From positions 279,837 to 343,836 of the forward strand of contig JAWKQX010000006.1 in NCBI GenBank assembly GCA_041389925.1: a stretch of DNA of 64,000 nt. Reading direction: 5' to 3'. Under the pieces are notes generated by a model that worked only from the letters and a program-made list of their open reading frames with translations, had not been told where the DNA came from and ran no database searches. The stretch is from Kofleriaceae bacterium (lineage in GTDB: Bacteria > Myxococcota_A > Polyangia > Haliangiales > Haliangiaceae). Shown here piece by piece: positions 4,135 through 64,000 of the stretch (the stretch's first letter is position 1; each line of letters opens with the position of its first letter). A program made the translations under genes and the position numbers.

Positions 4135-4230
4135 CGGCGCGCGCCTCGGGCGCGCCGCGGTCGGACCTTCGCGACGACGAAGGCCGATGCGGCAGTGGCG
4201 GAGCGGGCGCGTCGCTGCCAAACTAGGCCG

Positions 4231-4989
4231 ATGGTGCGCACCGACCGCGAGGGTCCCGTCACGATCGTGACCCTGGACCGCCCGGCCGTCCGCAACGCCG
4301 TCGACCGAGACACCGCCGCCGCGCTCGCGGCGGCGTTTCGCGCGTTCGAGGCGGACGACACGGCCTCGGTGGCGGTGTTGACCGGAGCCGGTGGGACGTT
4401 CTGCGCCGGCGCCGATCTCAAGGCCATCGCGGAGGGCCGCGGCAACCGGGTGGAGGCCGACGGCGACGCGCCGATGGGCCCCTCCCGCATGCTGCTGTCC
4501 AAGCCGGTGATCGCCGCGATCGCCGGCCACGCGGTGGCGGGCGGCCTGGAGCTGGCGCTGTGGTGCGACCTGCGCGTCGCGGAGGAGGACGCCACCCTCG
4601 GCGTGTTCTGCCGCCGCGTCGGCGTGCCGCTCATCGACGGCGGGACGGTGCGCCTGCCTCGCTTGATCGGGCTGTCGCGAGCGCTCGAGCTCATCCTCAC
4701 GGGGCGGCCCGTGGCGGCGCAGGAGGCGCTGGCGATCGGGCTGGTCCACCGCGTGGTGCCGAAGGGCGAGGCGCGAGCCGAGGCGATCGCGCTGGCACGC
4801 CAGCTCGCCGCGCTGCCGCAAGCGGCGCTCCGGGGGGATCGGCTCAGCGCCTACCAGCAGCACGAGCTCCCCCTGGCGGAGGCGCTGCAGCTCGAGCTGG
4901 ACCATGGGCGGCGCGCGCTGGCGGAGGGCGTCTCCAACGCGCAGCGCTTCGCCGCCGGGGCGGGGCGCCACGGACGCGAGCTGTCGTGA
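4231..4989 (+). CDS. Enoyl-CoA hydratase/isomerase (crotonase family)
   Basis: ATG at 4231. 'VTLDRPAVRNAV...VAVLTGAGGTFCAGADLKA' is crotonase-fold oxyanion-hole region. Length about 252 aa. Confidence 0.8.
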   Translation: MVRTDREGPVTIVTLDRPAVRNAVDRDTAAALAAAFRAFEADDTASVAVLTGAGGTFCAGADLKAIAEGRGNRVEADGDAPMGPSRMLLSKPVIAAIAGHAVAGGLELALWCDLRVAEEDATLGVFCRRVGVPLIDGGTVRLPRLIGLSRALELILTGRPVAAQEALAIGLVHRVVPKGEARAEAIALARQLAALPQAALRGDRLSAYQQHELPLAEALQLELDHGRRALAEGVSNAQRFAAGAGRHGRELS

Positions 4990-5291
4990 TCCGCGCGTCG
5001 GCCCTGCTGCTGGCGCTGGCGCTGGCCACCTCATCGTGTGCGCTGATCCGCGTGTTCACGGGCAACCGCGTCACCGGCACCTGCGACGGCGCCTGCGCGC
5101 ACTACATCGACTGCAAGCCGGGCGCGACCGTCGCCGATCGCCAGCGATGCGATCTGGAGTGCCCGCAGGTATTCGCGGATCGCAGCTCGCTGAGCATGTT
5201 CGAGCGCCTGACTTGCCCCGACGCGGTCAGCTACGTCGACGGAGATCCGCCCACCACTGCTGACACGCGGGTGCCGGCGCCCGCGCGCTGA
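4985..5291 (+). CDS. Small Cys-rich secreted lipoprotein, hypothetical
   Basis: GTG at 4985 overlaps the TGA of the crotonase gene (GTGA). Signal peptide with lipobox 'LALATSSC'. 8 Cys in about 100 aa. Confidence 0.5.
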
Positions 5292-5456
5292 GCCGCTGCT
5301 CCCGAACGAAGCAGGTGCTGCGAGGCGGCGCGTCGCCATGGAGCAGCCGTGGCGAGGGCAGCTCCAACCGCCCGGAACTCTTGCACAGCCAGCCTGGCAT
5401 CGCGCGTGCTTTAGCGGTAGCTCGCCGCGAAACGCGGCTTCGCAACAGGAGGCCTC

Positions 5457-6299
5457 ATGTCCAGTCCCTTGACCATTCGATTCTTTGGCGTGCGTGGCTC
5501 GGTCGCCACGCCGGGTGCGGCGTTCGCGGGCGTCGGCGGCAACACCGCCTGCGTCGAGGTCTCGGCCGGTGAGACGCGCATCGCGCTCGACGCCGGGACC
5601 GGGCTGCGCGCGCTCGGCGACGAGCGGATGCGCGCCGGGCTGCGCGAGCACACGATCCTGCTCTCCCACCTGCACTGGGATCACCTCCAGGGGCTGCCGT
5701 TCTTCACGCCGGTGTACGTCCCGGGGCACCGGGTGAACATCCTCTCGGGGCCGACCGGCGCGAAGCCGCTCACCGAGGCGCTGCCCTCGCTGTTCTCGGC
5801 GCCGTTCTTCCCGGTGGAGTTCGGCGTCGTCGCGGAGCAGATCACCCTCCGCGAGCTGCGGTCCTCGGAGCGCTTCACCGTTGGGGAGCTCTCGGTGACG
5901 ATGGCGCGGCTCAACCATCCGGATCCGGTCTACGGGTTTCGCCTCGAGGCCGGTGGGCGCTCGGTCGTGTACGCCACCGACACCGAGCACTACGCGTGCG
6001 TGGACCCGACGCTCGCGCGCCTCGCGGCCGACGCCGACGTGCTGATCTACGACTGCCAGTACGCACCGGAGGAGTACCCGACGCGGGTGGGGTGGGGCCA
6101 CTCGACGTGGCAGGCCGGCGTGGAGCTCGCGCGGGCGGCGCGCGTCTCGCAGCTCGTGTTGTTCCACCATGATCCGATGCGCACCGACGAGCAGGTCGCG
6201 GAGCTGGAGCGTCACGCGCGCGCCGCGTTCCCCGGCGCGATCGCCGCGCGAGAGGGGTTGGTGCTGGTCCCCGGAGAGGCGGAGCGTGTCGCCGCCTGA
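5457..6299 (+). CDS. MBL-fold metallo-hydrolase (beta-lactamase superfamily)
   Basis: '[17 protein letters not shown]' HxHxDH motif plus downstream His/Asp ligands. 280 aa. Confidence 0.8.
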
Positions 6300-53039: not shown

Positions 53040-53172
53040 ACCGTTGAATTTTCGACACGTGGCCAGAGCTGGCAGAGCGTAGCAGGTAGGGCCTGGAGTG
53101 TTGCCTGATGGGTCCTTCTCTGGCATGGTCCGCCCGATCCTCATCTCCTGTCGACGATGAGGCGGAGGACAG
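53040..53172 (+). promoter_or_regulatory. Lower-GC leader/promoter region upstream of the inositol-phosphate synthase gene, with GGAGG SD
   Basis: cgttgaattttcgacacgtggccagagctggcagagcgtagcaggtagggcc...ggcggaggacag ATG. Confidence 0.35.
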
Positions 53173-54492
53173 ATGGCTCTCAAAAAAGGTGTCGAAGTTC
53201 AGAACGCGACCGGCAAGCTCGGGATCCTGCTCCCCGGGCTCGGCGCCGTGGCAACCACCTTCATCGCCGGGGTGTTCGCCGCGCGTCGCGGGCTGCACAA
53301 GCCGATCGGCTCGCTCTGTGAGCTCGCGACGATCCGGCTCGGCAAGCGCACGGACAACAACTCGCCGCGGATCCGCGACTACGTGTCGCTGGCCACGCTC
53401 GACGACCTGTGCTTCGGCGGCTGGGACATCTTCCCGGAGAACTGCTTCGAGGCGGCCACCAAGGCCGGCGTCCTCGACGCCGCGCTCCTCGAGCAGCTCA
53501 AGCCCGAGCTGAGCGCGATCCGCCCGATGCCGGCGGTGTTCGAGCAGGCGTGGGTCAAGAAGCTCAACGGGCCCAACGTCAAGAAGGGCAAGAACAAGAT
53601 GGACCTGGCCGAGCAGCTCATCCAGGACATCGAGAACTTCAAGCGCGACAACAACTGCGCGCGCCTCTCCATGGTGTGGTGCGGCTCGACGGAGGTCTAC
53701 CGGCAGGCGACGGACGTCCACACCACGCTCGCCAAGTTCGAGGCCGGGCTGCGCAACAACGACGACAACATCGCGCCGTCGCAGATCTACGCCTACGCGG
53801 CGCTCAAGTGCGGCGTGCCGTTCACCAACGGCGCGCCCAACCTGACCGTCGACTTCCCGGCGATGCAGGAGCTGGCCAAGAACACCCAGACGCCGATCGC
53901 CGGCAAGGACTTCAAGACCGGCCAGACGCTGATGAAGACCGTGCTGGCGCCGATGCTCAAGGCCCGCATGCTCGGCCTCGAGGGCTGGTACTCGACGAAC
54001 ATCCTCGGCAACCGGGACGGCGAGGTGCTCGACGATCCGGAGTCCTTCAAGTCCAAGGAGGTCTCCAAGCTGGGCGTGCTGGAGCACATCCTGCAGCCGG
54101 ACAAGTATCCGGAGCTGTACAAGGACTTCTGCCACGTCGTGCGCATCAACTACTACCCGCCGCGCGGCGACAACAAAGAGGGCTGGGACAACATCGACAT
54201 CCGGGGCTGGCTCGGCTACCCGATGCAGATCAAGGTCAACTTCCTCTGCCGCGACTCGATCCTGGCCGCGCCGATCGTCCTCGATCTGGCGCTGTTCATG
54301 GACTTCGCCAAGCGCGCCGGCATGCACGGCATCCAGGAGTGGCTCTCCTTCTACCTCAAGAGCCCGATGACGCCCGAGGGCCTCTACCCCGAGCACGACC
54401 TGTTCATCCAGCTCATGAAGCTCAAGAACACGCTGCGCTACACCAAGGGTGACGAGCTCATCACCCACCTGGGCGCCGAGTACTACGACTAG
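53173..54492 (+). CDS. ino1: myo-Inositol-1-phosphate synthase (inositol-3-phosphate synthase)
   Basis: GGAGG SD 4 bp before ATG 53173. Family blocks 'GILLPGLGAVATTFIAG', 'NGAPNLT' and 'SKEVSKLGV'. 439 aa. Confidence 0.8.
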   Translation: MALKKGVEVQNATGKLGILLPGLGAVATTFIAGVFAARRGLHKPIGSLCELATIRLGKRTDNNSPRIRDYVSLATLDDLCFGGWDIFPENCFEAATKAGVLDAALLEQLKPELSAIRPMPAVFEQAWVKKLNGPNVKKGKNKMDLAEQLIQDIENFKRDNNCARLSMVWCGSTEVYRQATDVHTTLAKFEAGLRNNDDNIAPSQIYAYAALKCGVPFTNGAPNLTVDFPAMQELAKNTQTPIAGKDFKTGQTLMKTVLAPMLKARMLGLEGWYSTNILGNRDGEVLDDPESFKSKEVSKLGVLEHILQPDKYPELYKDFCHVVRINYYPPRGDNKEGWDNIDIRGWLGYPMQIKVNFLCRDSILAAPIVLDLALFMDFAKRAGMHGIQEWLSFYLKSPMTPEGLYPEHDLFIQLMKLKNTLRYTKGDELITHLGAEYYD

Positions 54493-55961
54493 CCGCTCGC
54501 GGGCGTCGCGCCGCGTCTGCGCGGCATCGTTGCGGCCATGCGTCGCACCGCCTCGTCGAGCTCTTGCTCGGTGCAGGCGGCAAAGCCCAGGCGCACGTGG
54601 TGCGTCGCCCCGCCGTCGAGCGCGAACCGCGGGCCCGGCTGGAAGCTCACGCCCACCGCGCGCGCGCGCGTGGCCCAGGTGACGGCATCGACGCCGGGCG
54701 CCCGACCCCACACCGCCATCCCGCCGGGCGGCGTGGTGAAGCGCAGCTCGGGGAGCTGGCGGCGCAGCGCCTCGATCAGCGCGTCGCGCCGCTGCCGGTA
54801 GGCGCGCCGCGCACGTCGGATGTGCCGGGCGATGGTGCCGTCGGTGATCAGGTTCGCGATCGCGCGCTCCAGGACGTGATCCCCTTGCTGGTCGACGGCC
54901 TCGCGATAGGCGACCACGCGCTCCACCACGTCGCGCGTCGCGGACAGGTAGCCGATGCGCAGCCCCGGCGCGAGGACCTTGGCCAGGGTGCCGACGTACA
55001 CGACGTTGCCATGGGGATCGGCGGCGGTGAGCGGCAACACCGGGCGCCCGTCGTACTGGAACTCGTGATCGTGATCGTCCTCGATGATCGGCAGGCGTCG
55101 GCGCCGCGCCAGCTCGAGCAGGCGGAGCCGTCGCGCCGCGCTGAGCGTCACCGTGGTCGGCACCTGGTGGTGCGGGATCACGTAGATCGCGCGCACGTCC
55201 TCTTGTGCGCACAGCTCCTCCAGCGCCGCGACGTCGAGGCCCTCGCGATCGAGCGCGACGGGGACGGGCTCGACGCCGGCGGCGCGAAACGCCGCCAGCG
55301 CGGCGGGGTAGCTGAGCGCCTCGACGGCGACGCGGTCGCCGGGGCGCAGCAGCACACGCGCCAGCAAGTAGAGCGCCTGCTGGCCGCCGCGGACCACCGC
55401 GACGGTCTCCTCGGTGCACGCCAGTCCGCGCGTGCCGCGCAGCATGTCGGCGAGCGCGACGCGGAGCTGCGCGTCGCCCTGGCCGTCGCGGTAGTCGAGG
55501 AGCCGCGCGCCGTCGCGGCCGGCGAGCACGCTGCGGTAGGCGCGGCCCACGGCGAGCTGCGGGACGAAGCGCAGCTCGGGCACCCCGCCGAGCAGGAGGA
55601 GCTGCCTGGGCGGCCGCCCCAGCGGCGGCGCGTGGGCGAGCGCCACGCCGCGCAGCTCGAAGCCGGCGCGCGTCGCGGGGTGCCGCTCCCGCGCGCGCCG
55701 CGGGGAGGCGGGCACGTCGGCGACGACGCGCGCGGTCCGCCCGGCGGACAGCGCGATCCAGCCCTGGCTGGCGAGCTCGCGATAGGCGGCGGTCACGGTC
55801 TTGCGGTGCACGCCGAGCTGCGCGGCGAGGTCCCGCGTCGATGGCAGCGGGTCGCCGGCGTGGAGGCGACCGCGCGCCACGTCCGCGGAGAGCGTCTCCG
55901 CGAGCTGCAGAAACTTGGGCCGGGAGTCCGCGGGATCGAGCGCGAGCACCGGCTTCCACAT
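54489..55961 (-). CDS. MocR/GntR-family regulator (N-terminal GntR HTH fused to class I aminotransferase-like domain)
   Basis: HTH 'LPSTRDLAAQLGVHRKTVTAAYREL'. PLP-fold body with 'GTLAKVLAPGLRIGY' (Lys). Confidence 0.8.
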   Translation of the reverse strand: MWKPVLALDPADSRPKFLQLAETLSADVARGRLHAGDPLPSTRDLAAQLGVHRKTVTAAYRELASQGWIALSAGRTARVVADVPASPRRARERHPATRAGFELRGVALAHAPPLGRPPRQLLLLGGVPELRFVPQLAVGRAYRSVLAGRDGARLLDYRDGQGDAQLRVALADMLRGTRGLACTEETVAVVRGGQQALYLLARVLLRPGDRVAVEALSYPAALAAFRAAGVEPVPVALDREGLDVAALEELCAQEDVRAIYVIPHHQVPTTVTLSAARRLRLLELARRRRLPIIEDDHDHEFQYDGRPVLPLTAADPHGNVVYVGTLAKVLAPGLRIGYLSATRDVVERVVAYREAVDQQGDHVLERAIANLITDGTIARHIRRARRAYRQRRDALIEALRRQLPELRFTTPPGGMAVWGRAPGVDAVTWATRARAVGVSFQPGPRFALDGGATHHVRLGFAACTEQELDEAVRRMAATMPRRRGATPASG

Positions 55962-56202
55962 GCGCCCCAGGGTAGCGCAACTGGACTACTCAATATTTCG
56001 AAACTGGCGCGGGGTGTGGGGTCCAGTTATCAGCCCGCGCTCGCCGTTGGATAGGTATGCGCTGTCACAAGACTTCCGTGCGCGCCGCGCGGATAGGGGA
56101 GCGCGGGTTTCGACGCGTTGCGACGTGGGGTGAGGCTGGCGGTTCCCGCCATGTAAGATGAGGTAGGGGTGGCGAGCGCTCGCGCCTCGCTAGGTTGTCG
56201 CC

Positions 56203-57813
56203 ATGACGACCAAGATGTTCAAGAGATTGCCATGGCTTGGGCTCACGGGGTTGCTGGTGGGGCTGCAGGGGTGCGCAGCGCTCGATGAACCCGCGGAGCC
56301 CGGCGTCGCGGCGGCGACCCCCACGGAGACCACGACCTCCGAGCTAGGCACGCCGCAGGCCATCCAGCTCGGCGCCAACCTCGCGGTGCTGGGCACCACG
56401 GAGGACGGCTACGCCCTCTACTGGGACGCGGGCGTGGTGTACGCCACCGCGCTGCAGCCCGGCGCGGCGCGCACGCGGGTCACCCGGGCGGCCGCTCCAC
56501 CGCTGACCATGACCTCCGGCCGGGTCGCGCTGGTCTGGCCCGACCAGGCGTTCTTCGGTCCGCTCGCTCCGAGCTCGCTCGTGGTGTGGACCGCCGCGGG
56601 CGGCGCGCACCGCGCGGCGGACTCCTCGATGCCGCCGGCGCTGTCCGCCATCGCCGCCTCCACCGCGGTCAGCCCGGACGGCCGTGAGGTCATCTTCACC
56701 GCCAACGTCGCGGCCGACGGCAGCACCGGCGACATCGTGCGCGCCAACGCCGACCTCTCGCGCGCCACCATCCTCGTCCGCGGGGCGCTGGTCAGCCCGT
56801 TCAGCGGGTGCCCGCCGCACGTCGGCTTCGACGCCGATCGCGCGTGCCACGGGCCGCGCTGGTACTGGCACGCCGACGAGACCGACGCCACGCTCCGCAG
56901 CCGCCGCGCCAACGCCGTGGTCGCCTCGTGCGACGCCTCCGGCGCGCCGTCGCTGGCGCGCTGGGTGGGCGGCGCGCGCTCGGAGCTCACCACGAACCTG
57001 GGCTCGACGGTGTGGTCCACCGACCGCTTCGGCGCGCACCTGCTCACCACCGCCGGCGACGGCTCCACCGTCGCGTACACGCGCGACGGCGCCAGCCTGG
57101 TGGTGAACCCCGACCCGAGCCTGGCGTGGATCACCCCGGGCGGCGCCGCCTTCACCCTCTCGCGGCGCGATCCCACCACCGTCACGCTGCAGCGGACCAC
57201 CTTCGGCGCCGCCGTGCGCACCGAGCGCGTGATGGACGTCGGCGAGACCCTGGGCGTCATGTTCGCGAACCACCTGGCGCAGGGCGCGCCGCACTACAAC
57301 ATCACGCCCAACCCGATGTCGCCGGATCAGCAGTTCTTCGGCGGCTTCAACACGGTGGACCCGAACACCGGCCTGACCAACGCGATCCTCGTCGACGCGG
57401 GGCGCCGCCGGCTGCGGGCGGCGTCGGCCAACGCCAACGCGCTGCCCTCCGTCGAGATCGCCACGCGGGACTCGAGCCACATGCTGCACTACCAGCTCGA
57501 GCCCGACGGCACGTTCGCGATGTACGCGACCGCGCGGACCGGCGGCACGCGGCGGCTCTCCCAGGGCGCGACCGGCCTCGAGCACTACGGGATCGCCGGC
57601 GGCGTGGTGGCGTTCTCGGACAACTTCCAGGGCAACCCGGCGGACCTCCTCTCGACGACGGACATCAAGCTCGTCGATCTGGCCGCCGGCACCGCGCCGC
57701 GCGTGCTGACGCGCGCCGCCCACGCGACGTTCTTCACCGCGCGCCGCCGGAGCGTCGTGGTGTACTCCACCGAGCAAGGCCGCCCGGGCCTGTACGTCAC
57801 GCGCGTGCGCTGA
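56203..57813 (+). CDS. Hypothetical lipoprotein (about 536 aa, beta-rich)
   Basis: Signal peptide with lipobox 'LVGLQGC'. Coding-like composition. Confidence 0.6.
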   Translation: MTTKMFKRLPWLGLTGLLVGLQGCAALDEPAEPGVAAATPTETTTSELGTPQAIQLGANLAVLGTTEDGYALYWDAGVVYATALQPGAARTRVTRAAAPPLTMTSGRVALVWPDQAFFGPLAPSSLVVWTAAGGAHRAADSSMPPALSAIAASTAVSPDGREVIFTANVAADGSTGDIVRANADLSRATILVRGALVSPFSGCPPHVGFDADRACHGPRWYWHADETDATLRSRRANAVVASCDASGAPSLARWVGGARSELTTNLGSTVWSTDRFGAHLLTTAGDGSTVAYTRDGASLVVNPDPSLAWITPGGAAFTLSRRDPTTVTLQRTTFGAAVRTERVMDVGETLGVMFANHLAQGAPHYNITPNPMSPDQQFFGGFNTVDPNTGLTNAILVDAGRRRLRAASANANALPSVEIATRDSSHMLHYQLEPDGTFAMYATARTGGTRRLSQGATGLEHYGIAGGVVAFSDNFQGNPADLLSTTDIKLVDLAAGTAPRVLTRAAHATFFTARRRSVVVYSTEQGRPGLYVTRVR

Positions 57814-58189
57814 GCCAGGCCGCGCGCGGGCGCGAGGCTCGCCGGGCGTTGCTCCGCGGCGCGCCCGTGCGCTCGCGTGGTGGCTGCCCGCGGCCCCGTG
57901 GAGCTGGAACGGGCGGCCTCAGCCAGGCGCGTCCAGCGGGTGACCGAAAAAACGTGCGCACACCGTCGCGAAAGCCCGCCAGGCTGGCGTCGGTGAAGGC
58001 GTCGAGGCAGGCGCGCGCGAGGTCCGCGACGATCGCGTAGCCTCGCCGCGTGAAATCGAGGAGCCGGGGCATGCGCGCAGCGTAGCGCGCCGCTCCGCGA
58101 GGTGGGCGATCTCGAGCGGCTCGGCGCTCGCGGCTTGGGGGCCGGAGCAGGCGCGGATTCGGCAAGGCCTGCGGTCGCGCTCGTGGGCG

Positions 58190-59980
58190 CTACCCAGCGC
58201 GGAGCGCGGGCTCGAGCCGCGCGCGCGCCTCGGCGTAGACCTCGCGCACGAAGAAGGTGAAGTCGGCGTTGCCGCTCATCGTAGGATGCAGGCCGCGAAA
58301 GGCGAGGATCGCCTCGGCGACGTCGGTGGTGTCGATCAGGCGCACGATCGAGGCGACCAGCGCGCGCGCGCCGGCGGCGAGCGGCCGGGCGCGGCGCTCG
58401 AGGCGGCGGCCGAGGCGGCGAAAGGTGAGCGCGAGCAGCACGTGCTCTTTCTCGAAGGTGAACAGCCGCGGCGGCCAGCCGTTGTCGTGCTCGAGGAAGC
58501 TCTCGAGGGCGTCCGCGTCGACGAGCGCGAGCGCGAGATCCGCGCGATGGCGCAGGCGCGCGAGGCGGTTGTCGCTTGGCAGCCGCGCCAGCGCGCCGCG
58601 CACGCGCTGGATCGCCGGGAGCGCAGCGGCGCCGCCCGAGGCGCCGAGGGCGAGGCAGGCAAGCCCCGCCTCCGCGAGGTCGACGCTGTAGCGCTCGGTC
58701 TCGGGGTTGATGATCCGCTCGGGCAGCGGCCCGGGCTCGCGAGCGAACGGCAGCACGGCCTCGGCGATGGCGGGGTGCTCGAAGAGGGCGAGGAGCCGCA
58801 ACAAGGACCCCGGCGACGGCGTCGCGTCCGACCGCGGCAGGCCATACGCCGGGCGCCGCGCCAGGGGCAGCGCGGCGACGAGCTGGTCGACGAGGTCGTC
58901 GCGATCGGCCGCGGCGAGCGTCCACGCCGTGTAGCGGAGCTGCACCTCGGCGGGCCGCTCCAGCGTCGCGACCGCGACCCGGCCGGTCGCGAGCGCTTCG
59001 GCGTCGGTCGGGCTGTTCAAGCGCCGCGCGGGGTCGGCGGGGTCGGCTGGGTCGGTCGGGCGCAGCGCGCCGTCGGCGCCGGCGGTGAACCGCGTCAGCG
59101 CCTCCGCCGGGACGCCTCGTCCGAGCCGCGCCAGGGCGGCGAGCGCGGGGAGCGAGCTCTGGTCGCCGAGCCGCGCCAGCGCGGCCAGCGCGTCGAGGTA
59201 GGAGCCGTCGACGTGCTCGATCAGCGCGCGCGCCGCCGCCTCGCGCACCTCGCGCGGCAGGTCGGCGCGCGTCAGCGGTCGCAAGACCTCGCGGGCGTCG
59301 GCCGCGGCGAGCGGGACGCGCCGCGCCAGCTCGACGTGGCGCGGCTGCGCGGCCGCGCCGTCGGCGCGCAGCCTGCGGAGCAACAGCGGCGTCGCCAGCG
59401 CGCAGCCCAGCGGCGCGAGCGCGTCGAGCAGCGCCACGGCGACCTCGTCGTCCACGTTGTCCACTATCGGCGCGAGCCAGCACTCCGCGTCGCGCCCGAG
59501 CTGGGCTACCAGCGAGTGCACCGCGGCGGCGCGCACCGCGGGCGCCAGGTCGCCGAGGTGAGCGGCCACGGCGCGCGCCTCCGCTTCGGCGAGGTCGCGC
59601 GGCGCGCGCGAGACGGCGCGCAGCTGGCCGAGCGCGGCGATCGCCGCGAGCCGCACGGTCAGCTCCGGATCGTCGACGGCGCCGCGCAGCTCCGTTGCGC
59701 CGCGGACCGCGAGCTCGGCGAGGGGCCGCGCGGGCGGCCAGTCGTCGACGAGGTGCAGCGTCGCCAGCTCGCCGAGCGCCGCGCACCCCAGCGCGCGCAC
59801 GCTCGGCGCGGCGTCGCGCACCAGCGCCAGGACCGCCGCGCCGTGCGCGAGCACCTCGGGGGCGAGCGCATCGGCGACTTCGACCTCGAGGTCGAACGTG
59901 GCGAGCGCGAGCACCTGGCGGGCGGCTTCCTCGCGGAGCGCGACCTGGGGAGCTGACAACCGCTCGGCGAGGGAGGACAT
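58190..59980 (-). CDS. HEAT/PBS-lyase-type repeat protein
   Basis: Repeated 'A..AL..LG....ALP.L...L.D.....VR..A..AL' units throughout. ATG 59980. Confidence 0.65.
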   Translation of the reverse strand: MSSLAERLSAPQVALREEAARQVLALATFDLEVEVADALAPEVLAHGAAVLALVRDAAPSVRALGCAALGELATLHLVDDWPPARPLAELAVRGATELRGAVDDPELTVRLAAIAALGQLRAVSRAPRDLAEAEARAVAAHLGDLAPAVRAAAVHSLVAQLGRDAECWLAPIVDNVDDEVAVALLDALAPLGCALATPLLLRRLRADGAAAQPRHVELARRVPLAAADAREVLRPLTRADLPREVREAAARALIEHVDGSYLDALAALARLGDQSSLPALAALARLGRGVPAEALTRFTAGADGALRPTDPADPADPARRLNSPTDAEALATGRVAVATLERPAEVQLRYTAWTLAAADRDDLVDQLVAALPLARRPAYGLPRSDATPSPGSLLRLLALFEHPAIAEAVLPFAREPGPLPERIINPETERYSVDLAEAGLACLALGASGGAAALPAIQRVRGALARLPSDNRLARLRHRADLALALVDADALESFLEHDNGWPPRLFTFEKEHVLLALTFRRLGRRLERRARPLAAGARALVASIVRLIDTTDVAEAILAFRGLHPTMSGNADFTFFVREVYAEARARLEPALRAG

Positions 59981-60197
59981 GGTGCCGAGAGTGTAGCGCC
60001 TGCGAGGGCGCCGCCGTGGCCTCGCCCGCGGCCCTGCGCGCCCGCGCGCCCGCGCGGCCCGCCTCGCCGCGTCGCGCTTGTGCTCCTTCGCTCAAGCTGG
60101 GACACTGCGCAGCGTGTCCAGCGGCTGGTCGATCGTCGTCGATGCGCACGGCCAGCTCGCGGCGCTGCCGCCGCGGCCGACCTTCGCCGCGCACAGC

Positions 60198-60866
60198 ATG
60201 GATACCCACTGGTACGTCGTCGATCGCGACGGCCAGGTGGCGCGCGCGTGGTCGGACCTGGAGGGCGCGGTGCCGTGGACGGCGTACGTCGAGGCCGGAG
60301 GCCCGCTGGTCGCCGACCTGCTCGCCCTACGCGTCGCGCGTGAGCGCGAAGAGGCGCCACCGAGCTCGCGCGAGCTCGCCTGCGCGCGGCGACGCAGCCT
60401 CGTGCACGTCCAGCCGTGGGAGCTGCCCTGGCAGTGGACCGGCGTCCTGCAGTTCGCCAGCGACGACTACCTCGCGGCGTTCCGCGACGAGTTCTACCCG
60501 CGCGCCGACGACTACTTCTGGCGGATCCCCTTCGGCGGCGCGCTGGCCGCGGCGCTGCCGCGCACCGTCGTGGCCCGGGAGATCCCCCGCGCCGGCTTCA
60601 CCGACTACTGGGATGCCGGCGCGATCGAGGCCGCGCTCTGGATCGATCACTGCAGCCCCGCCGACGTGGGGCTCTATGAGTACGGCTGCGAGTTCTCCGG
60701 CCCCTACCGCCGGCGCGTCGTCCCTGGCGTGCCGCTGCTCCTGCACGAGCTCCCCGCCGAGGTGCAGCGGCTGCTCGGCGGCGCGCGCGTGCGGTTCGCG
60801 TTTCACGACCAGCCCGCGTTCGATCCCGAGGAGCAGCTCGGCGATTGCCGGCGCTACGGACGATGA
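60198..60866 (+). CDS. Hypothetical protein (Trp-rich). A TTG start at 60078 is possible.
   Basis: 'WELPWQWTGVLQFASDDYLAAFRDEFYPRADDYFWRIPFGG'. Ends with a TGA overlapped by the ATG of a 34-codon ORF. Confidence 0.5.
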   Translation: MDTHWYVVDRDGQVARAWSDLEGAVPWTAYVEAGGPLVADLLALRVAREREEAPPSSRELACARRRSLVHVQPWELPWQWTGVLQFASDDYLAAFRDEFYPRADDYFWRIPFGGALAAALPRTVVAREIPRAGFTDYWDAGAIEAALWIDHCSPADVGLYEYGCEFSGPYRRRVVPGVPLLLHELPAEVQRLLGGARVRFAFHDQPAFDPEEQLGDCRRYGR

Positions 60867-60967
60867 CCGCGGTGCCCGAGCAGCTCGCGTCGCGGCCCAT
60901 CGCGCAGCTCGCCGCAAGGGAGTCGGAGGGGAGCGCTCTGGCAGCCGAGCTGGGGGCGGCCTCATGA
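60863..60967 (+). CDS. 34-codon ORF (MTAVPEQLASRPIAQLAAREGSEGSALAAELGAAS) with ATGA overlaps to both the upstream gene and the downstream radical SAM gene. Putative small coupling or precursor peptide.
   Basis: GC3 about 88%, in-genome style. ATG 60863 overlaps TGA 60864-60866. Its TGA 60965-60967 overlaps ATG 60964 of the rSAM gene. Not in the ORF track because it is shorter than 60 aa. Confidence 0.3.
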   Translation: MTAVPEQLASRPIAQLAARESEGSALAAELGAAS

Positions 60968-61743
60968 CGTTGGCCCTCGAGCGGCTGTCGATCGAGCTGC
61001 ACGACCGCTGTCGCAAGGCGTGCTGGTTCTGCTACAGCCACAGCGGGCCGGAGGGCGCGGCGGCGTGGCAGCCCGACGACGTCGTGGCGCTGGTGCGCGA
61101 CTGCGCGGCGCGCGGCGTGGCCGCGGTGTCGTTCGGGGGCGGCGAGCCGCTCGAGTACCCGGGGCTCTTCGCCGTCCTCACCGCGCTGCGCGGCCGGCTC
61201 TATCGATCGATCACCACGAGCGGCCTCGACCTGGACGCCCAGCTCGACCGCCTCGCGGCGTGCGCGCCGGAGCGCGTCCACGTCTCGATCCACGCGCCCG
61301 GCAACGCCGGCGAGGTGGCGCGCGTGCTTCGCCAGGTCGCGGCGCTGCGCGCGGCCGGCATCCCCAGCGGCGTCAACCTGCTGGTGCGCGCGTCGCAGCT
61401 TCCAGACGCGCGCGCGGCGGCGGCGCAGCTCCGCGCCGCCGGGATCGGCAACGACCGCATCGCGTACCTGCCCATGCGTGGCCAGGACACGCCGACGCCC
61501 GCGCAGCTCGGCGCGGTCGCCGGCGGCGCGCCGTTTCAGTCGATGACCTGCCTGGCCGCGTGCGGCAAGAGCCCGCGCTTCGCGTCGCTGGACAGCCAGG
61601 GGCGCGCGGCGTGGTGCTCGTACACGCGGACGCGGGCGCCGCTGGGCTCGCTCACCTTCGACGGCCTGGTCCGCGCGCTCGCGCCGCTGGGCGTCGAGCC
61701 GTGCGCGCGGCCCCCCGCGCGCGCGCGGCCGCTCCTGCCTTGA
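60964..61743 (+). CDS. Radical SAM domain protein (small, about 259 aa)
   Basis: 'CRKACWFCYS' is CxxxCxxC at residues 15-22. 'GGEPL' glycine-rich SAM motif ('SFGGGEPLEYPG'). Confidence 0.7.
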   Translation: MTLALERLSIELHDRCRKACWFCYSHSGPEGAAAWQPDDVVALVRDCAARGVAAVSFGGGEPLEYPGLFAVLTALRGRLYRSITTSGLDLDAQLDRLAACAPERVHVSIHAPGNAGEVARVLRQVAALRAAGIPSGVNLLVRASQLPDARAAAAQLRAAGIGNDRIAYLPMRGQDTPTPAQLGAVAGGAPFQSMTCLAACGKSPRFASLDSQGRAAWCSYTRTRAPLGSLTFDGLVRALAPLGVEPCARPPARARPLLP

Positions 61744-61777
61744 GCTGCGCGCCGCGAGGCGAGGCGCGCCGTCGCGG

Positions 61778-63604
61778 TCAGGCCGACGCGCGCGAGGCCG
61801 AGGCGTCCTTGACCGCGCCCTGCGGCACCGCGCGCAGCTCCTCGATCACCTCGCGCGCGGCCTGGAGGAACTCCTCGATAGCCTCCATCGGCATGTCGCC
61901 CATGTTCGCGACCTGGAGGAAGCGGTTGGCCAGCACCTCCTTGCACCCGTAGACGATGAAGCCGCGCTTCTTGAGCCGCGTGTACAGCTCGTCGAACTGG
62001 ATGCCTTCGGGGACGCCGCAGGTGATGACCGAGTTGGATTCCTTGCCGGTGCGGGTGAACGGCACCATGCCGAGCGCGGCCAGGCCGTGGCGCAGCCGGC
62101 GGTTGCGCGCGCGGTACATCGCGAAGCGCTTGGCGTGGCCGTCGGCGAGGAACTCCGAGCACGCGACGTCCAGCGCGAAGTACGCCGACACCGCGGGCGT
62201 GAAGGGCGTCTGCGCGAGATCATCGATGTACTTGCGATAGCGCTTGAGGTCCAGGTAGTAGCTGCGGGGCTTGGTGTTGGCGATCTTGGGCCAGGTGCGC
62301 GGCGACACGCACACGAAGCTGACGCCGCTGATCGCGTGCAGGCACTTGTTGGCGCTGCCCCAGCACACGTCGATGTTGTCGCGGACGACGTCCAGGTCCT
62401 CGGCGCCCAGCGCGGACACCGCGTCGACGAGGAACAGCGCGTCGTGTCGGCGACAGAGCGCGCCGATCTCGGTGGCCGGGTTGAGCAGGCCGACCGAGGT
62501 CTCGTGGATGGTCATCGCGACCACCTCGATGTCCGGGTGCTCCGCGAAGGCGCGCTCGACGTCCGCGACGTCGACCAGATCGCCCCACGCGTAGCGCAGC
62601 CGCACGACCTCCATCTCGTGGAGGCGACAGATCTCGTAGAGGCGCTCGCCGAACGCGCCGTTGTCGATCACCAGCACCTTGCGGTCGTACGGCACCGTCG
62701 AGGTCAGCGCGGCCTCCATCGCCGCGGTGCCGCTGCCGGTGATGCAGCAGACGGTGTGCTCCGGCGTGCCCTGAAAGACGCGTCGCAGCTTGCCGGAGAG
62801 CGAGACCATCAGCTCGCTGAAGTTCGAGTCGCGGTGGCACACGTCGTGGTGCACCATCGCCGCCTTCACCGCCGGCGTCGTGTTGACCGGACCCGGGTTC
62901 ATCAGCACGTAGCTCGGGTGCGACTTGCTCGACAGGATCGCGTTGACCGGCGTGTGGACGTCGGCGCGCGGCGGCAGGCCCCAGGGCCAGGCCAGTCGCC
63001 CGGCGCGCGCGCGCACGCGCCCGGCGCTGGCCCACATCGCCAGCGCGTCCTCCATCGAGGGGTTGTTGAAGCCCGCCAGCGCGTCGATGAGCTCCCGCGA
63101 CGCCAGCATGTGCCCGGTGAACACCGCGTCGAAGCGGTCCATGTCGAGGCCGATCTGGGTGATCTCACCGCCCTTGCCGACCCGGACCTTGACCTCGTGG
63201 CCCAGATCGCCGCTCGGCGGCGCCGCGATGGTGACGATCGCGCTCGCGTCGTGGAGCTTGGCACCGGCGAGATCCGCGAGGGACTCCGGATCGAGCGGAC
63301 GATCGCCGCGCAGCACCAGGCACGGTCCGCTCGCGGCCGCGAAGAACTCGCGCGCGAGCAGGATCGCCGAGCCGCTCTCCCGGCGCCACGAGCGGTTCGC
63401 CAGCACCTCGATGCGCATCCCGGACAGCTCCGCGATGCTGAGGAAGTTGCGGAGCTCGGCGGCGTGCTCTCCATCCACCACGCACACGTCGGTCACCCCG
63501 ATCTTCGCCAGGGAGATCAGCGTGCGGGTGAGCAGCCCGAGGCTCGGGGACCCGCCGCCCTCGAAGACCAGGCGGTTGGCGACGACGATGGCGTGTTGAA
63601 TCAT
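61778..63604 (-). CDS. phnW: Fusion protein: N-terminal nucleotidyltransferase-like (PntC/LicC-like, P-loop degenerate) domain plus C-terminal 2-aminoethylphosphonate:pyruvate aminotransferase (PhnW-like, class V)
   Basis: C-terminal half aligns block-by-block with PhnW: 'LMNPGPVNTT', 'DNGAFGER', 'HETSVGLLNP', 'SANKC', 'GFIVYGCK'. The N-terminal 230 aa has a 'VVDGEH...GMRIEVLAN' NTase-like fold but lacks the GxGxRL motif. Confidence 0.75.
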   Translation of the reverse strand: MIQHAIVVANRLVFEGGGSPSLGLLTRTLISLAKIGVTDVCVVDGEHAAELRNFLSIAELSGMRIEVLANRSWRRESGSAILLAREFFAAASGPCLVLRGDRPLDPESLADLAGAKLHDASAIVTIAAPPSGDLGHEVKVRVGKGGEITQIGLDMDRFDAVFTGHMLASRELIDALAGFNNPSMEDALAMWASAGRVRARAGRLAWPWGLPPRADVHTPVNAILSSKSHPSYVLMNPGPVNTTPAVKAAMVHHDVCHRDSNFSELMVSLSGKLRRVFQGTPEHTVCCITGSGTAAMEAALTSTVPYDRKVLVIDNGAFGERLYEICRLHEMEVVRLRYAWGDLVDVADVERAFAEHPDIEVVAMTIHETSVGLLNPATEIGALCRRHDALFLVDAVSALGAEDLDVVRDNIDVCWGSANKCLHAISGVSFVCVSPRTWPKIANTKPRSYYLDLKRYRKYIDDLAQTPFTPAVSAYFALDVACSEFLADGHAKRFAMYRARNRRLRHGLAALGMVPFTRTGKESNSVITCGVPEGIQFDELYTRLKKRGFIVYGCKEVLANRFLQVANMGDMPMEAIEEFLQAAREVIEELRAVPQGAVKDASASRASA

Positions 63605-63639
63605 GGGGGCGCTGCATCCTGCAGCAAGCCTCGTACCTT

Positions 63640-63725
63640 GACATCTATATAAGAATTACAAATACTTACACTGGAAGTGGTTGGAAACTGACACCTGGAG
63701 TGGTGAATCGTCACCTGCGCGGCGC
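63640..63725. promoter_or_regulatory. AT-rich island (about 40% GC against about 70% background) immediately upstream of the phnW-fusion gene; candidate promoter
   Basis: cttgacatctatataagaattacaaatacttacactggaagtggttggaaactgacacc. The TTGACA / TATAAG / TACTTA hexamers cannot be assigned unambiguously. Confidence 0.4.
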
Positions 63726-63811
63726 CAGCCCGGCGCACGATCGTCACGTTTTGACCGGCCCGGCCTGCGCTCGCGTCCCGGGCAAGGCGGGCGCACCCGT
63801 GCGCCAAGATC

Positions 63812-64000
63812 AGGGGCGAGGCATCAGCGTGGGGCCGAGCTCGCGGAGCAGCTTCTCCGCGTGGCCGTGGGCCAGCGGGGTGTCCACGTCGACCCAGACC
63901 GCGTCGCCCACGTCGACGACCCGCATCTTGCCCTGCGCGGCGAGCTTGGCCATGCCCTGCGACAGCGAGCAGCCCGCCGGTCCCTCGACCTCCTCGAGCG
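63812..64000 (-). CDS. 3' end of a gene running off the window: C-terminus of a nucleotidyltransferase-like protein (partial)
   Basis: Reverse translation '...LEEVEGPAGCSLSQGMAKLAAQGKMRVVDVGDAVWVDVDTPLAHGHAEKLLRELGPTLMPRP*'. High GC3. Confidence 0.45.

Follow-up and report, generated by a model that had tools for sequence, protein, structure and literature searches.

Does a gene that resembles a 2-aminoethylphosphonate (AEP) transaminase have to belong to phosphonate metabolism? The question is raised by a protein of 608 amino acids (aa) encoded close to one end of a 64,000-nt stretch of DNA from a Kofleriaceae bacterium of the Haliangiales (contig JAWKQX010000006.1, positions 279,837 to 343,836; hereafter the window), in which a nucleotidyltransferase (NTase)-like domain is fused to a class V aminotransferase. 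An earlier interpretation from the DNA letters alone (the sequence-only reading) had taken this fusion for a phosphonate signature, and automated pipelines label the protein and thousands of its relatives 2-aminoethylphosphonate-pyruvate transaminase. Our analysis points elsewhere: judged from its sequence, the protein is a member of a clade sister to the AEP transaminases (AEPTs), with Gln and Phe at two positions where AEPTs carry Arg and Tyr, and its NTase-like domain is predicted to be dead. We give about an even chance to the view that phosphonate metabolism is not involved and that the locus, in which the NTase is split and its fused copy dead, serves a CDP-alcohol/inositol-phosphate pathway.

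The fusion gene itself was found exactly where the sequence-only reading had placed it, at 61778-63604 on the minus strand. The GC content at third codon positions of its open reading frame (ORF) is 0.94 and matches that of the real genes of the window (73% GC), an identical protein is held by NCBI as an aminotransferase entry ('MAG: Kofleriaceae bacterium', from a metagenome-assembled genome, MAG), and full-length homologues fall into more than 120 clusters at 58–85% identity. The AlphaFold2 (AF2) model reached a pLDDT of 84 and a pTM of 0.82, and a Foldseek comparison with the PDB returned as best match the PntC-AEPT fusion (6pd1/6pd2), aligned over both domains and 624–636 columns (6pd1: 624 columns, 23% identity, E 1e-43). 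An N-terminal NTase fold is thus followed by a C-terminal class V aminotransferase on a single polypeptide; this layout is that of PntC-AEPT and, as had been pointed out before, the architecture was already known.

The resemblance of the C-terminal domain to AEP transaminases, described earlier as block for block, is real. Pfam Aminotran_5 covers aa 248–551 (E 7e-21), and the top NCBIfam model, TIGR03301 (PhnW-AepZ), aligns to aa 233–586 nearly from end to end (model positions 1–354 of 355). The motifs SANKC and HETS.GLLNP are common to the window protein and AEPTs, and the class V fold is confirmed by a TM score of 0.92 to the PhnW structures 1m32 and 7e7g and also to 9kk8 (rmsd 2.1 Å, 28–31% identity). 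However, the AEP-transaminase profile check, which the sequence-only reading had proposed with TIGR02326, ended below the curated cut-off in all three models used here, with 312.1 versus 360.8 bits for TIGR03301, 235.2 versus 296 bits for NF010006 and 220.4 versus 400.8 bits for TIGR02326.

The active site offers a closer view of this distance. The lysine K420 of SANKC, which binds pyridoxal 5'-phosphate (PLP), and D394 are invariant in 34 homologues, and the C-terminal domain is predicted to be a catalytically competent class V aminotransferase. Equally invariant among 34 homologues is Gln564 (FLQVANMGD), which occupies the position of the substrate-anchoring Arg found in the F-R-[IV]-[GA] motif of every solved relative aligned, namely 2dr1 (PH1308), 7e7g, 1m32, 9kk8 and 6pd1; in addition, Phe318 stands in place of Tyr. 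We take the Arg at this position to bind the substrate carboxylate in class V aminotransferases (Arg360 in AGT) and, presumably, the phosphonate in PhnW. Falling outside the curated AEPT families and lacking the anchoring Arg, the aminotransferase is, on these predicted features, not a PhnW. Nothing usable came from the literature searched for the PhnW Arg, aminopentanetetrol or the combination of serinol and glycerol kinase.

A family likeness of this kind could also fit an ordinary amino-acid aminotransferase of the alanine/serine-glyoxylate/pyruvate type, which would carry a regulatory N-terminal domain and lie near inositol genes by chance. By sequence, the closest PDB match is indeed PH1308 (186 bits), whose deposited name is 'serine aminotransferase', with searches aligning to 6pd1 through the C-terminal domain only, and the names that NCBI gives to relatives include alanine-glyoxylate aminotransferase family. 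There is also a precedent in the M. penetrans MetRS (PDB 9OS7), a tandem of an NTase-like and an AGAT-like domain fused to the tRNA synthetase, the aminotransferase of which makes amino acids such as Met; like the window fusion, it has a degenerate NTase fold before a class V aminotransferase (Foldseek E 5e-32, 17% identity; PMC13215547). Against this, the carboxylate-binding Arg of the class is missing, and the models for BhcA and pyridoxamine-pyruvate aminotransferases gave 127–177 bits compared with 312 bits for PhnW-AepZ. The grouping with serine-glyoxylate aminotransferases that would have overturned the AEPT likeness was accordingly not observed (BhcA, 127 bits). Since the linkage to an NTase, a CDP-alcohol (CDP-OH) transferase or GlpK is moreover conserved across phyla, we consider an ordinary amino-acid aminotransferase improbable.

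How the protein relates to true AEPTs was analyzed with an exhaustive search of 1.84 billion representatives, from which 136 usable matches were aligned. Two patterns emerged from the alignment: Gln (rarely His, Ile or Leu) together with Phe318, and Arg together with Tyr318. The window protein shows the pattern QPHF and lies on the Gln/Phe side of the tree. In a quick neighbour-joining (NJ) tree, judged by its unrooted bipartitions (midpoint rooting split the Gln/Phe group), one single bipartition sorts 130 of 134 representatives correctly into the two types. The profile scores follow the same division, with all five Gln-type proteins at 288–329 bits for TIGR03301, below the cut-off, and all four Arg-type NTase fusions at 394–433 bits. 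Similarly, the window aminotransferase domain is 51% identical to that of the Gln-type fusion P0125 and 35% identical to Arg-type AEPT domains. Besides that, the representative P0149 had been considered as an RtxA-type dihydroxyacetone phosphate aminotransferase, but turned out to be a tandem aminotransferase and not RtxA, which therefore serves here solely as an analogy from the literature.

If the Gln/Phe clade were made up of phosphonate enzymes, its members might be expected beside genes for phosphoenolpyruvate (PEP) mutase (Ppm) and phosphonopyruvate decarboxylase (Ppd). These were sought by six-frame scans for the Ppm motif EDKxxxxxNS and a thiamine diphosphate (ThDP) motif and by tblastn with real Ppm and Ppd proteins from locus L025. 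The window was extended with a contig from Logan SRR28338160 (L001), which is 100% identical to window positions 54393–64000 over 9608 nt and continues for a further 5289 nt. Neither the Ppm and ThDP motifs nor homologues of Ppm or Ppd were found in the 64-kb window, in L001, in 14 further Haliangiales loci (among L003–L018, with up to 10 kb on each side) or in the Gln-type loci L020–L023; tblastn matches of Ppm in the scanned loci were solely to the fused NTase half of the query. The same scans detected the positive controls L024 and L025. The absence of ppm and ppd from the window had been seen correctly in the sequence-only reading, but its suggestion that they lie just beyond position 64000 did not hold, as the additional sequence encodes a beta-helix protein, a small leucine-rich repeat (LRR) protein, a MOP flippase and an S-adenosylmethionine (SAM) methyltransferase instead.

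Arg/Tyr proteins present a different picture. Some form a single polypeptide with PEP mutase (P0196) or Ppd (P0175), and the Arg-type NTase fusions P0162 and P0186 lie directly downstream of ppm(-NTase) and ppd (L025) and of ppd (L024), respectively. In total, ppm or ppd accompanied none of about 19 Gln/Phe loci (4–20 kb of context) but both Arg-type fusion loci in the same searches. In the loci covered, phosphonate genes accompany the Arg/Tyr type and not the Gln/Phe type. Scores below the AEPT cut-offs, Gln564, a clade in which no ppm or ppd was found nearby and a neighbourhood of inositol-phosphate and CDP-alcohol genes together speak against the proposed phosphonate signature.

The strongest form of a phosphonate interpretation would be a PntC-AEPT-type enzyme that takes part in making or tailoring AEP, with ppm and ppd at another place in the genome and the CMP-AEP made by the neighbouring NTase decorating a glycan or lipid. 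The top profile (PhnW-AepZ, 312 bits), the top structural match across both domains (6pd1) and the shared SANKC and HETS.GLLNP motifs argue for it, as do the MOP flippase and methyltransferase upstream and the fact that NTase, AEPT and CDP-OH transferase form the core of phosphonolipid clusters in Burkholderia (PMC8942020). The reference enzyme, Tde1415 of Treponema denticola (6PD1/6PD2), likewise combines an N-terminal LicC/MobA-like NTase fold with a class V aminotransferase (PMC6697681), and the window fusion shares its domain order, PLP Lys and Asp and SANKC-type motifs. Yet in Tde1415 the two-Mg cytidylyltransferase site is active, the anchoring Arg is present (FRIANIGD) and the gene belongs to a ppm-ppd cluster. 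In the window protein, by contrast, the GxGxR/Lys loop and WxDxD are missing, Gln564 stands at the anchor position and no ppm or ppd lies near. All three curated cut-offs were missed, no ppm or ppd followed within 5.3 kb past the window, and throughout the about 19 loci of its clade these genes are lacking, whereas Arg-type enzymes stand beside them in both loci and are also fused to them. A PntC-AEPT-type role is in our view quite unlikely. PhnW/AepZ (TIGR03301, TIGR02326; 1M32, 7E7G, 9KK8) have the same fold and are the nearest curated family, but carry Arg/Tyr in place of Gln564/Phe318 and differ in clade and gene context.

A catabolic PhnW-type enzyme that degrades environmental AEP appears highly improbable. 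The likeness to the AEPT family is its one support, with HAD hydrolases standing beside the fusion in some relatives. The HAD protein considered as a candidate for the phosphonatase PhnX matches phosphoglycolate-phosphatase-type models only and not phosphonatase; the anchoring Arg is lost, and no phnX, phnA, phnY or AEP transporter was found near the fusion.

The second unusual feature of the protein is its N-terminal domain. The first ~226 aa show weak matches to IPCT and GlmU models (NCBIfam, E ~1e-4), which are the only family matches of the domain, and are homologous to the NTase gene ending at 63810 (tblastn E 6e-7). We aligned the domain with 21–33 full-length homologues (58–85% identity), neighbouring stand-alone NTases and NTase domains of related fusions. 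In all aligned Haliangiales members the G-x-G-x-R-L loop and the lysine of the following P-K are deleted (VVA----NRLVFEGGGSP), and WPWG stands in place of W-x-D-V-D; both motifs are intact in P0186, P0188, P0162 and the neighbouring NTase. Asp101 of GD(R)PL and Lys139 of EVKV are kept. At the expected position of the loop, residues 13–18 form the sole low-confidence segment of this domain in the AF2 model (pLDDT below 50). The degenerate P-loop reported in the sequence-only reading proved to be absent altogether in the alignments, and since the nucleotide-binding loop is degenerate, a non-catalytic role, one of the options then offered, is the best reading of the domain. At the same time, the domain is not drifting: 34 Haliangiales homologues agree without exception at 19 of its positions.

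The intact counterpart is encoded next door. The gene that had been noted upstream is a second NTase indeed; it is cut by the end of the window and complete in L001, where it encodes 243 aa matching PF12804 (53 bits) and an IPCT domain model (124 bits), with intact motifs (AAGKGERL...PKPL, WVDVDTP). Its identity to the intact NTase domains carried by the Gln-type fusions P0125 and P0131 reaches 44–45% (E 1e-60), compared with only 24% to the fused N-terminal domain of the window and 23–26% to PntC-type domains; the fused domain, in turn, is 25–28% identical to the intact N-terminal domains of the P0123/P0125 fusions. Because the upstream NTase is so much closer to Gln-type NTase domains than to the fused domain beside it, the stand-alone NTase and the fusion might represent a split version of a bifunctional NTase/aminotransferase. 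The simplest history would start from an ancestral bifunctional enzyme of which the NTase was duplicated, with the free copy keeping the chemistry and the fused copy decaying into a conserved non-catalytic module.

What, then, could be the metabolic setting? Gene neighbourhoods were compared across 15 distinct Haliangiales loci, with the recurrent neighbours listed in Table 1. The most frequent partner is an adjacent IPCT-like NTase, followed by a glycerophosphodiester phosphodiesterase (GDPD) and by MIPS (myo-inositol-1-phosphate synthase). The MIPS of the window is 79% identical to those beside the fusion in L003 and L007, and from the recurrence in Haliangiales we infer a functional tie of MIPS to the fusion. 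A CDP-OH transferase and a HAD protein stand beside the fusion among the relatives L003, L007, L008, L013, L017 and L018; for example, L018 contains within 8 kb a HAD protein, NTase, flippase, CDP-OH transferase, NTase, a gene without assignment, the fusion and MIPS. In L007, a 644-aa protein (4193–6127, minus strand) next to an IPCT-like NTase and MIPS consists of two CDP-alcohol phosphatidyltransferase halves, one DIPPS/AIPS-like and one PssA-like. A radical SAM/BATS protein syntenic with a Cob_adeno_trans gene was rejected as part of the system, the former being BioB (378 bits).

This association with inositol genes could indicate that the aminotransferase acts on an inositol-derived ketone, such as inosose or inosose phosphate, possibly CDP-linked, and makes an aminocyclitol head group, with the dead IPCT-like domain binding inositol phosphate or CDP-inositol. 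MIPS recurs near the fusion and abuts it in L010, the N-terminal domain matches no families other than IPCT and GlmU, and the loss of the anchor for an anionic group would fit a bulkier, differently anchored substrate. On the other hand, no conserved inositol dehydrogenase is present in the neighbourhoods, and beyond Haliangiales, MIPS is missing from the surroundings of Gln-type enzymes. Known inosose aminotransferases, furthermore, belong to the DegT family, which counts against this substrate. Taken together, we regard an inosose aminotransferase as improbable too.

Outside Haliangiales, Gln-type proteins with an intact NTase domain share an operon with a metallophosphoesterase and a pair of CDP-alcohol transferases (L020, L102, L106) or occur beside an LCP protein, a YfhO-like protein and a methyltransferase (L022). 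In L078, the companions of a Gln-type protein with an N-terminal extension are a PHP phosphoesterase and, again, two CDP-alcohol transferases, and on an archaeon-like contig (L023) a stand-alone Gln-type enzyme lies between a methyltransferase and a CDP-alcohol transferase. Metagenome loci were collected by a DNA pattern for FQVANMG; 56 of 120 contained an aminotransferase match and the remainder was treated as chance. In at least 22 metagenome loci (among L027–L134), stand-alone Gln-type enzymes of anaerobic Firmicutes adjoin a GlpK-family kinase; an AraC regulator is often present as well, as is a transporter, either an amino-acid-type permease or of the TRAP kind. In Ihubacter massiliensis (L147, 6457–9083), the genes follow one another in the order AraC, GlpK, aminotransferase, and have an amino-acid-type permease or TRAP transporter close by. 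JGI labels these GlpK-linked stand-alone aminotransferases AEP-pyruvate transaminase. The position of GlpK next to the enzyme points to a small phosphorylated glycerol-like amine, and the loci suggest an uncharacterised catabolic pathway for such an amine together with a systematic mis-annotation.

The favoured explanation, a CDP-alcohol/inositol-phosphate pathway, builds on the recurrence of the transaminase with a cytidylyltransferase-type NTase, CDP-alcohol transferases and a phosphatase, since this combination suggests a small amino-alcohol phosphate as product or substrate of the transaminase, whose relative acts on a two-carbon phosphonate aldehyde. The aminotransferase would convert a small phosphorylated carbonyl, most likely an acceptor of the triose- or glycolaldehyde-phosphate type, to an amino-alcohol phosphate, with serinol phosphate, 1-amino-glycerol 3-phosphate and phosphoethanolamine as candidate products. 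The stand-alone NTase would activate this product, or inositol 1-phosphate, with CTP, and CDP-alcohol phosphatidyltransferases and a phosphatase, which in relatives stand beside the fusion and here would be encoded elsewhere in the genome, would build a phosphodiester head group or solute, which in Haliangiales would be coupled to myo-inositol phosphate. The dead NTase domain could serve as a scaffold, as a ligand-binding module or as a module for docking a partner. In the catabolic settings, a glycerol-kinase paralogue takes the place of the NTase, CDP-alcohol transferases and phosphatase. Any particular substrate is held at far less confidence than the general pathway. The domain architecture, the motif losses, the clade membership and the gene neighbourhoods are shown by the data, whereas the substrate, the direction of the reaction and the role of the dead domain are inferred.

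One specific version can be put forward tentatively, as an unlikely but concrete possibility. Haliangiales and other Gln-type lineages might make an undescribed zwitterionic phosphodiester, consisting of an amino-alcohol phosphate of the amino-glycerol or serinol type on myo-inositol or a lipid, which serves as a head group or compatible solute. It would arise through the sequence transaminase, cytidylyltransferase, CDP-alcohol transferase and phosphatase, with the pseudoenzyme domain docking the active NTase or binding the CDP-alcohol.

Several points weigh against the CDP-alcohol/inositol-phosphate pathway as the setting of the fusion. The Gln/Phe clade contains no characterised enzyme, so that the substrate is a guess from context, and PhnW-AepZ remains the best-scoring profile, as PntC-AEPT remains the nearest solved structure. 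MIPS lies 7.3 kb from the fusion, behind unrelated genes. A CDP-alcohol phosphatidyltransferase, a HAD protein and GDPD are absent from the window and L001, as judged by tblastn and by the CDP-OH motif DxxDGxxAR...GxxxDxxxD. For the genome of the window, the negative result for ppm and ppd covers the window and 5.3 kb beyond, and the MAG contigs behind the neighbour counts differ in length. Moreover, the loss of the carboxylate- and phosphonate-binding Arg poses the question of how an amino-acid donor is bound, and the chemistry may differ from a classical transamination.

Two described systems come close to the proposed gene set. The first is a putative alternative cluster for inositol lipids of the CDP-inositol, Kennedy type, described by Heaver et al. 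in 2022 from Bacteroides vulgatus and Prevotella together with the report of ceramide phosphoinositol from Myxococcus xanthus (PMC9246714). MIPS, an NTP transferase, a CDP-alcohol phosphatidyltransferase and a HAD protein likewise recur around the fusion in Haliangiales; of these, MIPS and the NTase are present at the window locus, whereas the CDP-OH transferase and HAD protein were not found in the window or L001. As described, that cluster lacks an aminotransferase, and the functions proposed for it still await confirmation (PMC9246714). The second is the IPCT/DIPPS pathway, through which hyperthermophiles form di-myo-inositol phosphate and glycero-phospho-inositol solutes; with it the loci share the combination of an IPCT-like NTase, a DIPPS/AIPS-like CDP-OH domain (L007), MIPS and IMPase/HAD phosphatases. 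That pathway, however, has no aminotransferase; in addition, all scores of the loci remain far below the equivalog cut-offs, and the hosts are mesophilic Myxococcota.

Table 1 Features of the fusion locus and recurrent neighbours of the fusion gene in Haliangiales
Feature	Position in window	Strand	Basis or occurrence
608-aa ORF, pseudo-NTase and class V aminotransferase belonging to the Gln/Phe clade (sister to AEP transaminases)	61778-63604	-	ORF call, GC3 (GC at third codon positions), homologues
NTase-fold domain, aa 1-226, predicted catalytically dead	62927-63604	-	alignments, AF2, identity to NTases
Aminotransferase domain, aa ~229-590, with K420, D394, Gln564, Phe318	61835-62920	-	HMMs (profile hidden Markov models), alignments, structure
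Intergenic spacer, 205 nt, possible own promoter or regulatory site of the fusion gene	63605-63809	.	AT-rich island 63611-63709
Stand-alone NTase, 3' end (last 62 codons and stop), presumed active partner	63810-64000	-	L001 4749-5480
MIPS	53161-54489	+	Pfam NAD_binding_5 332 bits, Inos-1-P_synth 122 bits
Adjacent IPCT-like NTase			14/15 Haliangiales loci
GDPD, convergent, downstream			10/15 Haliangiales loci
MIPS within 10 kb			7/15 Haliangiales loci; directly abuts the fusion in L010
CDP-alcohol phosphatidyltransferase			4/15 Haliangiales loci
HAD phosphatase			4/15 Haliangiales loci
MOP flippase			4/15 Haliangiales loci

The spacer between the two NTase-containing genes has an unusual composition. 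Its AT-rich island (63611–63709) is the sole region of at most 40% GC in the 64 kb, with a 60-nt minimum of 33% GC at 63634–63693. The sequence-only reading had called it a promoter island; the island stands and is unique, and it may hold a promoter or regulatory site of the fusion gene, but neither a sigma-70-like promoter on the strand of the fusion gene nor a terminator was found within 61500–64000. The sole sigma-70-like match in this range lies inside the island at 63638–63666 on the plus strand (TTGACA-17-AATACT, 10/12), opposite to the strand of both flanking genes, and could reflect an antisense or divergent transcript or chance.

Further genes of the locus deserve brief mention. A MocR-type regulator of 490 aa (GntR helix-turn-helix and Aminotran_1_2; 54489–55961, minus strand) ends where MIPS ends and may control inositol-phosphate genes. 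Between MIPS and the fusion lie genes for a 536-aa protein with a weak PD40 match (56203–57813, plus strand) and a 596-aa protein with a weak HEAT-repeat match (58190–59980, minus strand), neither of which has a firm family assignment. They look like an insertion, since in L010 they are absent and MIPS and the fusion are direct neighbours. Three tightly packed genes at 60114–61743 (plus strand), with overlapping stops and starts and running convergent to the fusion gene, encode a 250-aa protein without a family match, a 34-aa ORF (60863–60967) and a 259-aa radical SAM protein (60964–61743). This set could be a small peptide-modifying cassette.

NTase-aminotransferase fusions as such were known from Tde1415, as was a degenerate NTase before an AGAT-like domain from the M. 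penetrans MetRS. What appears to be new is the large and coherent Gln/Phe sister clade that is routinely called PhnW but lacks a phosphonate context, the way in which it is linked to GlpK or to CDP-alcohol/inositol genes, and the split-and-decay arrangement of the NTase at the window locus. As a consequence, phosphonate catabolism or synthesis may be overestimated where metagenomic surveys infer it from counts of phnW-like genes, and the Gln/Arg and Phe/Tyr positions provide a simple filter for PhnW calls. If the zwitterionic phosphodiester does exist, many metagenomic 'PhnW' calls would represent the Gln-type enzyme and would not be related to phosphonates. The two recurrent contexts of this widespread clade, GlpK-family kinases in anaerobes and an NTase with CDP-alcohol transferases elsewhere, point to an unrecognised small amino-alcohol-phosphate metabolite and possibly to a new polar head group or solute. 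In evolutionary terms, the locus would illustrate clearly how a domain of an enzyme can decay, yet persist as a conserved pseudoenzyme, once its activity has moved to a duplicated, separately encoded copy.

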